The notes under the pieces are model-generated. The model ran no database searches and was not told the origin of the DNA. It worked only from the letters and a program-made list of their open reading frames with translations. Positions 8,865 to 47,304 of a stretch of DNA of 64,000 nucleotides are shown one piece after another (position 1 is the first letter of the stretch; the number at the start of each line of letters is the position of its first letter). The translations under genes and the position numbers were made by a program. Origin of the DNA: a bacterium (GTDB lineage Bacteria > Patescibacteriota > Gracilibacteria > JAUYGZ01); assembly GCA_030690415.1 (NCBI GenBank), contig JAUYGZ010000008.1:47281-111280 (forward strand). The letters run 5' to 3'.

Positions 8865-8940
8865 TGGAGCCACCTATCGGACTCGAACCGATGACCCACG
8901 GTTTACAAAACCGTTGCTCTACCAACTGAGCTAAGGTGGC
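8865..8940 (-). tRNA. tRNA-Thr(TGT)
   Basis: GCCACCTTAGCTCAGTTGGTAGAGC-AACGG TTTGTAA ACCGT...GGTTCGAGTCC...CCA. Confidence 0.97.
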
Positions 8941-29159: not shown

Positions 29160-30311
29160 ATGACCATAGGCATCGACTGCAGATTGTATAGTCCGAAATA
29201 CACCGGCATAGGCCGATACGTGTTCGAACTGATCAAGAACCTGATGAACCTGGATCAGACGAACCACTATATCTTGTACTTCAACTCTGAGGAATATGAC
29301 GATTTTGTGTGTCCCAACGAGCGCTGGGAGAAAAGACTCGTCACCATTCCTCACTATTCCCTGGCTGAACAGACGAAGTTTTTGAAAGTGCTGAACCGCG
29401 AGCAAATTGATCTGATGTACTTTCCCCATTTTAACGCTCCTATTCGGTACAAGAAACCTTTTGTCGTTACCATCCATGATTTAACGCTGCACCATTACCC
29501 GAACAAGTCCTATCATCCGAGGTGGTCAGCCAAAAAATCCCTCCAGATCGCTGTGTACCGATTCATAATGGGGCGGGTTCTCAAGCATGCCCGGAAGATT
29601 ATCGCCGTATCTGATAACACCAGACAGGATCTCATCAGGGAGTACCTCATACCGGAAGAAAAAATCGTGAAGATCCTGGAGGGGGTTCCTGAATCTTTTC
29701 AGCAGGCCTCGGAGGAGCAATTGGATCGGGTGAGGAATACTTATGCCATTACAAAACCCTATTTGCTCTATACCGGAGTCTGGCGGTCTCATAAGAATCT
29801 TTTGAACCTGATCCAAGCCTTTCATCAGCTCCTCAAGAGGGGACATGACATTCAGCTCGTTTTAACAGGGAAGAAAGATCCGTCCTATCCTGAGATCCCG
29901 AAGCTGATTGAGGATTTGGATCTGAAGAATGAAGTTATCCTGACTGGATTTGTCTCCGAGGAGGATCTGATCGCGCTGAACTCCGGAGCCAGGGTCTTTG
30001 TTTTTCCTTCCCTGTACGAAGGCTTTGGCCTGCCTCCCCTGGAGGCGATGCAGCTGGGAGTACCGGTCGCTTGTTCAAAAAACTCCTCTCTCCCTGAGGT
30101 CTGTGGGGATGCCGCTCTGTATTTTGATCCCCATCAAAAAGACGACATGGTCCGACAAATAGAACTGCTCCTGATCGACGAAGCGTTGAGAGATGAGATG
30201 ATTCGGAGAGGTCATGAAAACCTTAAGCGCTTCTCCTGGAAGACGATGTCGAGCGGAATACTTGACATCTTTAATTCTTTCAGGAATAATACTAACTTAA
30301 AAAAAATTTAG
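29160..30311 (+). CDS. Glycosyltransferase family 4
   Basis: TGIGRY, VTIHDL, HKNL, FPSLYEGFGLPPLEAM. Confidence 0.93.
   Translation: MTIGIDCRLYSPKYTGIGRYVFELIKNLMNLDQTNHYILYFNSEEYDDFVCPNERWEKRLVTIPHYSLAEQTKFLKVLNREQIDLMYFPHFNAPIRYKKPFVVTIHDLTLHHYPNKSYHPRWSAKKSLQIAVYRFIMGRVLKHARKIIAVSDNTRQDLIREYLIPEEKIVKILEGVPESFQQASEEQLDRVRNTYAITKPYLLYTGVWRSHKNLLNLIQAFHQLLKRGHDIQLVLTGKKDPSYPEIPKLIEDLDLKNEVILTGFVSEEDLIALNSGARVFVFPSLYEGFGLPPLEAMQLGVPVACSKNSSLPEVCGDAALYFDPHQKDDMVRQIELLLIDEALRDEMIRRGHENLKRFSWKTMSSGILDIFNSFRNNTNLKKI
30262..30290 (+). promoter_or_regulatory. sigma70-type promoter for the downstream structured RNA
   Basis: TTGACA, 17-bp spacer, AATAAT, inside the 3' end of the GT4 gene. Confidence 0.55.
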
Positions 30312-30712
30312 GGCCCCCTCCTTTGACACTTGGTTGCTCAGATGAGCAACAGGGGAAGTGTGGAGAAAGGCCCTACGGTACTCAATGGATTGGTGAAAGC
30401 GTTTCGCGGTAAAAATTGGAAATGCTCACATAAGACCATTGAGGGATCGATCTCGCCAGTAGCGTGAGTTCGAATATGTCACTCCCGCTAACGCGGGATG
30501 CGCTCCTACTGTTCTTTCGTGGTTTTAACGAGGTCACGCCCTCGTCCCCATAAACGTGCAGAGCCCGTCCCGCTAAGCGGGACAGGAATGCATCAAAGGG
30601 AAATTTGAGAGGCCTGTACTGGCAGGCCCGGTTCCGACAAGTCGGAACGAGTCGAAAAGTAGGAAGCTCAGGATCATTTCACTCTGAAATAAGACTGGGC
30701 TTACTGCTTTTT
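30311..30712 (+). ncRNA. Candidate large (~400 nt) structured ncRNA, family unassigned
   Basis: At least 10 nested stems, G-U pairs and a cUAACg tetraloop on the + strand, upstream promoter, terminal hairpin plus T-run, no credible ORF. Confidence 0.7.
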
Positions 30713-30863
30713 TCTTTGTGCTCTGCGGTCTTTCAAGGTTCATAATATGATACCACTTATTTTTACTAATGTCAATATCAAGGTCGTCATTTACCGGGGG
30801 GTTTGACAATCATTATGCAATCAGTAAACTGCTGCTGATTTTCATCGAAATTGTATAGACTCT

Positions 30864-31556
30864 TTGTACTCACATTTGAAACCAATCGACGAAAGTAATC
30901 AGGAAGATGAGGCTTCTCATGAGCTTGTCATTCAGGGGTCATCTGTTCGAATTCTGTGTTCAGTTCTCGAACTCAAGCTCAGGTCTCTCTTGGATGACTA
31001 CCACTCCCGTTTGAATCAGTTATTGGGACAGATTTCCTGCGATGGGATTTCGTCTGTCGCTGATAAATCGTACGTCAGAGACGTCGATGGTTTACGAGTA
31101 CAGCAATTTTTTGCCCAGAGAAATGAGCTGTTGTCATTCCCAGAAGAGCTTCAGAGCATGATCAAAGCTCAGGTAGGAGTGATTGTGAGGGAGAATCCGG
31201 GAGTTAATCTTGATATTACCCAGGATTTTAGTATCCGACTGACATCAAAGGAGGAAGAGGGCATACCGCTCCTCGTCGATCGACTTGCTCCGGAAAATGA
31301 GCGAGATCGATTCGTTCTTCGCTCTGTTCAGAGAATTATGGATATGATCCGCACCCGTATCGACGAGCTCAATACTCAGCACCCGAAGGCCTCAAGTTAT
31401 CTCAAGTCACGGGTCATTCTCCACATGGAAACTGCCCTCAATAAAAGCGTCCTGAATGACCCGTCAGCTACACTGGGAGATCGTCTCTCCGCGGCTCGAC
31501 GAATCCTGATTGAACAGCTTTCCCAGTGGGTAGGTTGGGTACTGAGGCCCTCTTAA
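30864..31556 (+). CDS. Hypothetical protein
   Basis: 230-aa ORF (TTG start) after a TTGACA..TAAACT promoter-like sequence. Confidence 0.55.
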   Translation: MYSHLKPIDESNQEDEASHELVIQGSSVRILCSVLELKLRSLLDDYHSRLNQLLGQISCDGISSVADKSYVRDVDGLRVQQFFAQRNELLSFPEELQSMIKAQVGVIVRENPGVNLDITQDFSIRLTSKEEEGIPLLVDRLAPENERDRFVLRSVQRIMDMIRTRIDELNTQHPKASSYLKSRVILHMETALNKSVLNDPSATLGDRLSAARRILIEQLSQWVGWVLRPS

Positions 31557-46872: not shown

Positions 46873-47304
46873 TTACCCCTTCTGATTGTAGAAGGGGTCT
46901 TTCCAGACACTCACGCCAAGGTAGACCACGAAGGCATTGATGGCAATGCCTACCACCTCGCCCATGGAGAGAGACTGGAGGAGGCCCAAGACAGAGAATA
47001 CCAGCACTACGATCAGTGCCCATCGGGCTCCCGCGAATAGGCCTCTGGTCATAAAGAAAGAAAAAACGGCTATACCTATCAGAATCAACGCGAAGACCCA
47101 AAACATACCCTGAAGCATGCCGGTGACTCCTCCCGCCACCAGAGGATCCATTCCGGGTGCCCCCTGAAGCATTCCCCCCATCAATCCGAACATCATACCT
47201 TGTCCAAAGAGTGCCAACACGCCACCGATTGCCGCAATCGCGGTTCCAATAGCGGCAAGATAACCCAAGACGGTACCCTGCCAAGGACGAACTACTTTTA
47301 CCAT
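46873..47304 (-). CDS. Hypothetical membrane protein
   Basis: Four hydrophobic segments. Confidence 0.7.
   Translation of the reverse strand: MVKVVRPWQGTVLGYLAAIGTAIAAIGGVLALFGQGMMFGLMGGMLQGAPGMDPLVAGGVTGMLQGMFWVFALILIGIAVFSFFMTRGLFAGARWALIVVLVFSVLGLLQSLSMGEVVGIAINAFVVYLGVSVWKDPFYNQKG

Follow-up and report, generated by a model that had tools for sequence, protein, structure and literature searches.

The window analysed here comprises 64,000 nucleotides of contig JAUYGZ010000008.1 (forward-strand positions 47,281 to 111,280) from the Gracilibacteria assembly GCA_030690415.1. In a non-coding gap of about 550 nt around positions 30311-30712, it carries a conserved, folded non-coding RNA gene of about 440 nt that lies outside every described family. 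We consider it probable that this is a stand-alone gene read from the minus strand, and the founding member of an undescribed family. It spans about 30740 to about 30300 of the minus strand, with a closing helix (strands X' and Y') around a multi-helix junction that holds three or four hairpins; the coordinates of all elements are given in Table 1. A first-pass annotation, made from the letters alone, had placed a structured RNA at 30311-30712 on the plus strand, and called it either a novel large non-coding RNA or a very divergent housekeeping RNA. The RNA does lie there, but its true extent is larger.

The structured nature of the region is clear on both strands and is kept in relatives. The minimum free energy (MFE) of 30311-30712 is -167.2 kcal/mol in the plus sense (z = -7.1) and -160.5 kcal/mol in the minus sense (z = -6.7), and in neither case did any of 100 dinucleotide shuffles fold as well. 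Comparison with the 4227 covariance models of Rfam 15 gave nothing at or near a gathering score: at the gathering threshold, the whole window has five matches, all of them tRNAs and none at the RNA, and at E<=10 the stretch 30200-30800 has two chance matches, far under the family cut-offs. The same permissive scan of seven homologous loci returned 20 matches, none within the RNA core and none recurring between loci; one of them, with E = 6, overlaps the edge of the RNA in locus L038, and the sole significant one is a tRNA. In the literature on structured and non-coding RNA of these phyla, supplementary family lists apart, we found no account of this RNA; two 2026 preprints on noncoding space make no mention of these phyla. 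A small open reading frame (ORF) starting at a conserved AUGAACC was also considered. It is open in the window genome, but stops after 3 and 10 codons in two relatives (G002 and G004), and was rejected as not coding.

Eleven sequences of the RNA were assembled: that of the window, those of six related genomes and those of four metagenome contigs. A DNA search of 61 genomes gave a match in five, including the window's own, and in four of six of the same family. With a covariance model of the core (R1), the RNA was detected in 7 of 151 genomes of the class, namely the window genome, five of six of its family and, weakly (E = 0.004), G008 of the sister family. A second model (R2), built from ten sequences, found the same seven among 41 genomes and scored G008 at E = 4e-4. 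The remaining family member, G006, has a completeness of 74% and yields neither the RNA nor a match to tsf, so that the absence of the RNA there is probably an assembly gap.

Species genomes and metagenome contigs were scanned with exact patterns only. Among the former, seven stretches matched, four being relatives already known and three being chance matches that the model did not recognise; pattern matches in Rhizobium, Frondihabitans and Wenzhouxiangella records were set aside as chance, having no model match. Among the metagenome contigs five stretches matched, of which the model confirmed four; locus L034, a pattern match in high-GC coding DNA, has no model match and was discarded as chance. 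The pattern was not found in any viral contig. Downstream of tsf, G007 and G010 have a terminator and protein genes but no such RNA. These searches place the RNA in a single clade, at the level of a family, of Peribacteria/Gracilibacteria-like candidate-phyla bacteria living in groundwater and sediment; the sister family contributes one divergent copy.

The homologues covary, in agreement with the novel large RNA that had been proposed. In the core alignment fitted to the model, 90.2% of the cells pair and 18 of 36 pairs show changes in both partners, a level that none of 500 shuffles reached. The full-length MAFFT alignment (10 sequences), which is not fitted to any structure, behaves similarly: 88.1% of 599 cells pair, and 27 of the 63 proposed pairs change on both sides. 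Four of five measures were reached by none of 500 shuffles of this alignment, and the fifth, the number of further pair types, by two. Sliding the partners by 1-3 columns lowers the pairing to 37-48%. Because the sequences are related, the counts of pair changes overstate how many of these arose independently; several distinct lineages do show such changes.

Covariation extends to two hairpin loops. The loop CCAGUA of hairpin H_C' is complementary to the loop UACUGG of hairpin P3', and the two change jointly: they read CCAAUA/UAUUG in G004 and M38, UUGAUAG/CUAUCAA with seven pairs in G002, and AAUUAC/GUAAUU in G008 of the sister family, whereas M36 has a U.G wobble. Cognate loops form 5.4 paired bases on average, against 2.9 for shuffled loops, with none of 2000 shuffles as high. 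G005 has three Watson-Crick pairs only, and G001 and M35 are devoid of P3' altogether. This joint variation suggests a loop-loop kissing pair, which may form within one molecule or between molecules.

The RNA is very probably encoded on the minus strand, and its earlier assignment to the plus strand is most likely wrong. The minus strand is favoured by its universal promoter, its terminator and its stable tetraloops. The promoter, TTGACA-N17-TAT(T/C)AT, occupies the same position in 10 of the 11 sequences and reads TTGACA-N16-TATAAT in G008; it scores at least 11 of 12 in every one of them, and has the TG of an extended -10 box in ten, while the sequence of the spacer varies freely. At the other end, the hairpin P1' is directly followed by at least five U, in the minus sense, in 7 of the 11 homologues. 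These tails were read by eye, as the folds pair the U-runs with upstream A-runs. A consensus scan of the window flagged neither this terminator nor its plus-strand counterpart, since both loops exceed the limit of the scan.

Four-base loops differ sharply between the two senses. In the MFE folds of the 11 sequences, 12 of 29 such loops are GNRA (5), UNCG (5) or CUUG (2) in the minus sense, against 0 of 34 in the plus sense. The tip of the long hairpin H_B' swaps among UUCG, CUUG and GCAA between relatives, an exchange at hairpin tips that is known from ribosomal RNA. The consensus energy of the core is -29.6 kcal/mol in the minus sense versus -24.4 kcal/mol in the plus sense.

G.U pairs had been cited in support of the plus strand. 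Over the union of the consensus pairs of both strands, the count is in fact 43 in the minus sense versus 29 in the plus sense. In the minus sense RNAalifold extends one hairpin through positions where U.G alternates with C-G or U-A (7/3, 5/5 and 4/5 sequences), and an optional hairpin, found in five sequences, reaches 7-9 stem pairs with a closing U.G in this sense only. Among helices that the MFE folds of both strands share, interior G.U pairs number 25 (minus) versus 16 (plus), a weak lean in the same direction.

Read in the minus sense, the RNA would begin with the conserved leader AACCUUGAAA, which 8 of the 10 aligned sequences share (two of them, G003 and G002, with one base changed) and which is different in G001 and M35. 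The leader is followed by the 5' hairpin S1, formed by strands Z' and X'. In the plus sense, S1 with its T-run resembles a terminator and may stop glycosyltransferase transcripts. The core then comprises the hairpins of the junction and is completed by the invariant junction strand CACGAAAG. The stem of H_C' contains U.G in the minus sense in 5 of 10 sequences. Helix P_e encloses, besides H_B', an extra hairpin in five relatives, and U.G/C-G and U.G/U-A alternations occur in this region at alignment columns 248/289, 256/280 and 257/279. H_A' has two pairs with both bases exchanged (C-G to G-C, and G-C to A-U), and in G008 the stem is wholly swapped with the loop retained. The junction itself carries highly conserved unpaired bases; in riboswitches and ribozymes, such bases at a closed junction mark a binding or active site. 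After Y' comes a 3' domain of two or three hairpins (P4', P3' and P2'), and then the terminator P1'. The P3' stem of M36 and M37, read from the sequences, has two G.U pairs in the minus sense only.

Table 1 Features of the RNA gene and its neighbours in the window.
Feature	Position	Strand	Description
Sigma-70-type promoter	30747-30775	-	-35 TTGACA (30775-30770), 17-nt spacer with TG, -10 TATCAT (30752-30747); 11/12 matches in the window
Probable transcription start and conserved 5' leader AACCUUGAAA	30731-30741	-	start about 30741-30739, placed by the spacing from the -10 box
5' hairpin S1 (strands Z', X')	30655-30713	-	folds and duplex energies; variable length, missing from G001 and M35
Closing helix, 5' strand X' (GCUUCCUACUUUUC)	30654-30667	-	pyrimidine-rich; pairs with 30502-30514
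Optional hairpin H_D'	30631-30648	-	CUUG cap; in the window genome (G000), G004, M38 and G005, not in G002, G003, M36 and M37
Hairpin H_C' (GGCCUG-CCAGUA-CAGGCC)	30611-30628	-	stem covaries; loop 30617-30622 is a kissing partner
Helix P_e around long hairpin H_B'	30546-30600	-	P_e pairs 30597-30600 with 30546-30549 (four pairs); H_B' at 30555-30595; RNAalifold on the MAFFT alignment
Hairpin H_A' (ACGAGG-GCGUGA-CCUCGU)	30528-30545	-	near-invariant hexaloop GCGUGA; 98.3% of cells paired
Conserved junction strand UUAAAACCACGAAAG and closing helix, 3' strand Y'	30502-30527	-	Y' at 30514-30502, purine-rich; invariant columns
Hairpin P4'	30483-30498	-	variable; UUCG cap in G004 and G002
Hairpin P3'	30447-30473	-	loop UACUGG (30461-30456) is the second kissing partner; covariation
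Long hairpin P2'	30381-30443	-	conserved internal loops; pairing in 82.4% of cells, both partners changed in 4 pairs
Intrinsic terminator P1'	30299-30373	-	hairpin 30373-30311, then U AAA UUUUUUUU (30310-30299); adjoins the convergent glycosyltransferase gene at its stop codon
Family-4 (GT4) glycosyltransferase gene	29160-30311	+	left of the gap
230-codon ORF	30864-31556	+	right of the gap; TTG start, no Pfam match

Most of the local hairpins listed in the first-pass annotation are real and kept in relatives: 30311-30373, CTCAATGG/CCATTGAG, TCCCGC-TAAC-GCGGGA, ACGAGG/CCTCGT, TGCA/TGCA, GTCCCGC/GCGGGAC, GGCCTGT/GCAGGCC, GTTCCGAC/GTCGGAAC and AAGCTCAG/CTGGGCTT. The larger frame drawn around them has to be replaced. 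As judged by eye, the proposed long-range stem TCGA(T)CTCG/CGAGTCGA fails in G005 and G002, and its 5' half forms the local hairpin 30447-30473. The pairing CAGTAG/CTACTG fails in the same two relatives: CAGTAG belongs to a hairpin loop whose pairing partner is the loop of the GGCCTG hairpin, and CTACTG makes up one side of the closing helix, opposite AGTAGG. The supposed T-loop-like GTTCGAAT is merely a stem strand, present in the window genome alone.

Strand X' is at once the 3' strand of S1 and the 5' strand of the closing helix, so that two pairings compete for it: with Y' (30502-30514), or with Z', the 5' strand of S1 (30698-30713). Z' and Y' are alike and both track the changes of X', for instance as UCACU/AGUGA in G005 and as CU-rich/GA-rich strands in G003, and also in G008. 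The X'.Y' duplex is more stable than with shuffled X' in 10 of 10 sequences, and amounts to -11.4 kcal/mol in G008, which was scored without shuffles. The Z'.X' duplex beats the shuffle mean in 7 of the 8 sequences with S1, by a wide margin only in G004, M38, G003, G005 and G002; G000 ties at -7.8. Altogether, the exchange points to Z' replacing Y' on X', either in a folding intermediate or in a conformational switch.

A hint of the abundance of the RNA comes from three RNA-type libraries of three studies, from an aquifer, a freshwater sediment and a marine sediment. They contain contigs of 157-229 nt that carry the core of relatives alone, with no flanking genes, and whose matched portions diverge from the window by a few to about twelve letters per hundred. 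The small-share runs X2, X4, X6 and X7 hold relatives less than 95% alike, and not the organism of the window. Stretches of the window that the sequencing runs leave uncovered were given no weight.

Several observations weigh against a stand-alone RNA on the minus strand. The library contigs belong to relatives, are strandless and lack the ends of the RNA; carry-over of DNA is possible, and one of the three libraries is probably DNA by its record. The sequences number 11, from a few lineages, and their kinship inflates the covariation counts. Of the 11 homologues, 5 fold to a lower MFE on the plus strand and 6 on the minus strand, so this measure does not decide the strand. In the core alignment fitted to the plus strand, G.U pairs number 20 in the plus sense versus 19 in the minus sense, ten of the 20 being one invariant pair; one position of the P2 stem is U.G in the plus sense and C.A in the minus sense in four sequences. 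By eye, the kissing pair of G005 is better in the plus sense, and T-runs follow S1 on the plus strand in about 3-5 of 11. A plus-strand promoter-like site scores at least 10 of 12 in 6 of the 11 sequences.

These points would fit an RNA transcribed from the plus strand, an explanation that we regard as unlikely. Such an RNA would start at the TTGACA-17-AATAAT site in the end of the glycosyltransferase gene and stop at the hairpin 30655-30713 and its T-run, as a structured 3' untranslated region or as an element resembling a riboswitch, with competition between the closing helix and the terminator stem. The layout is indeed that of an ON-switch, the strand AGUAGGAAGC pairing with either the upstream closing strand or the downstream terminator strand, and several G.U pairs exist in the plus sense only. 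The promoter, on which the first-pass annotation also relied, exists at 30262-30290 with 11 of 12 matches in the window, but it is missing (at most 7 of 12) in G002, G008, M36 and M37, and wherever present its TTGACA falls within conserved ILDI codons of the glycosyltransferase. In G001 and M35 a plus-strand terminator is missing, and a tRNA gene on the minus strand follows at once. The extended H_B helix and the optional hairpin show A.C in the plus sense where the minus sense has G.U, and the stable tetraloops disappear. Finally, no conserved plus-strand gene lies downstream: a tRNA (in G001 and M35) or tsf (in others) lies there on the opposite strand.

On the minus strand, the next gene downstream is the convergent glycosyltransferase gene, which leaves the RNA without a target in cis. 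This convergence, read from the locus sequences, holds in 10 of the 11 loci, and it raises the improbable alternative of a cis-acting module for the glycosyltransferase, which would work by transcriptional interference or as an antisense brake on read-through, its structure being incidental. The hairpin 30311-30373 has no T-run in the plus sense, so glycosyltransferase transcripts would read through to S1 and its T-run. Neither interference nor antisense action needs a conserved junction, kissing loops or invariant unpaired bases, however. The RNA does not overlap coding sequence, G008 keeps it without the glycosyltransferase neighbour, and gene order is generally kept within one family, which makes the linkage weak evidence.

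The suggestion of a very divergent housekeeping RNA is not supported. RNase P RNA (RF00010) was found elsewhere in the genome, on contig C18 at 65285-65690 with 167.8 bits, as was transfer-messenger RNA (tmRNA, RF00023; ssrA), on the same contig at 30467-30919 with 87.3 bits and a tag peptide; neither model matches the RNA region. The RNA of the signal recognition particle (SRP; RF00169 and RF01854) was found neither in the window genome nor in any of 31 genomes of the class. In these 31, which include G000, the SRP_SPB domain (the M domain of Ffh) was not found, and no SRP54-type GTPase (Ffh or FtsY) scored above the cut-off. With no SRP RNA and no SRP proteins detected in the lineage, the new RNA is not a hidden SRP RNA, and this identity was ruled out. 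That many candidate-phyla bacteria have lost SRP subunits has been published before (PMC8080830).

6S RNA (RF00013) was likewise not found in the window genome, nor in the six other genomes of the family that carries the RNA, and at E<=0.01 it is present in 9 of 34 other genomes of the class, among them G007 of the sister family, which lacks the new RNA. Such a pattern could suggest that the new RNA is a 6S stand-in or an extreme derivative, abundant and bound to RNA polymerase, and a very strong constitutive promoter is typical of RNAs of this kind. We hold this to be very improbable: the region has no 6S match even at E<=10, and its fold is a multibranched junction with a 3' domain, its 5' and 3' ends not paired with each other, rather than a rod with a central bubble. 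Detection of 6S is patchy elsewhere (9/34), which leaves 0/7 without significance, the chance being roughly 12%. Moreover, the 6S RNA of G007 belongs to an unrelated locus, and the matching place in the window genome has no RNA gene. The 6S-like RNAs of G007 and of eight other genomes of the class are about 150-160 nt long and score 34-47 bits, just under or at the Rfam cut-off; that of G007 lies on contig C2 at 157364-157515 (L043 2865-3016, minus strand), between a MiaB/RimO-like gene and rsmE.

The gene on the minus strand has the attributes of an independent small RNA gene, that is, a conserved promoter (11/11) and a terminator of its own (a hairpin and at least five U, 7/11), and it lacks the regulated gene downstream on the same strand that would accompany a cis riboswitch or leader. 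Its transcription would begin at a near-consensus extended -10 sigma-70 promoter and stop at its own intrinsic terminator. The product would not be a leader for a neighbouring gene; it may be abundant and act in trans as a folded particle that scaffolds a protein or its own copies, or that works as a sensor or catalyst around the conserved junction. A trans-acting particle is our best guess, reached by exclusion and by analogy. Any particular mode of action is rated far below the existence of a stand-alone non-coding RNA.

The closest parallels are the OLE, ROOL, GOLLD and raiA motif RNAs. Like the new RNA, these are stand-alone, several hundred nucleotides long and narrowly distributed, with many covarying helices, conserved junction bases and loop-loop complementarity; their function was unknown at discovery. 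The new RNA differs from them in that it matches none of their models at E<=10, is smaller than GOLLD, ROOL and OLE, and resides in candidate-phyla bacteria rather than in Firmicutes or phages, no viral contig having it. Kissing loops are said to have a role in the homo-oligomers of ROOL, GOLLD and OLE. The formation of such homo-oligomers by these three RNAs is described in PMC12286853. By analogy, the new RNA might represent a class of self-organising RNA particle, in which the junction would be a ligand or catalytic site, Z', X' and Y' would act as a switch, and the loop pair would build homo-oligomers as in ROOL and GOLLD; this picture is speculative, and we consider it unlikely.

Two other systems show partial likeness. 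With 6S RNA, the new RNA shares a probable abundance and a strong promoter and terminator of its own, but it has no match to the model, folds into branches and is more than twice as long. With a riboswitch aptamer and its expression platform, it has in common that a helix closes off a conserved multi-helix junction and that one strand can pair in two ways. Unlike a riboswitch, it has no downstream gene on the favoured strand, no ligand is indicated, and its core of about 170 nt is large for an aptamer.

Genomes of 1.1-1.8 Mb pay a high price for an RNA gene of 320-500 nt. That the gene has been kept with a near-perfect promoter, a covarying contact and an invariant junction makes it likely to be important for the lineage. 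To our knowledge, few non-coding RNAs have been described in candidate-phyla bacteria, and with this one the few large bacterial RNAs of unknown function gain a further family. It is new as a member of no described family, although orphan structured RNAs are already familiar as a loose kind. Its distribution is narrow, with 11 sequences and an uncultured host. The core is small enough for structural work, and the exchangeable strands and the loop pair provide concrete hypotheses.

The assembly of the window's genome amounts to 1.45 Mb in 30 contigs and is 98.8% complete; the sequencing runs that contain the window sequence are groundwater metagenomes. To the right of the RNA, beyond the 230-codon ORF, tsf and rpsB are encoded on the minus strand. 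In 7 of the 10 other loci, tsf stands just past this end of the RNA, its product being 63-71% identical to the EF-Ts of the window. In the window, about 780 nt (30776-31552) separate the promoter of the RNA from the end of tsf and contain the 230-codon ORF, which has a promoter-like site of its own at 30803-30830. This segment looks like an insertion specific to the window's genome.

Left of the RNA copy of G008, several strong GC-rich hairpins with T-runs stand in series (L033, about 1140-1310); they look like stacked terminators or a repeat. Elsewhere in the window, a tRNA-Thr(UGU) was found on the minus strand at 8865-8940, which was missing from the ARAGORN run on contig C7.

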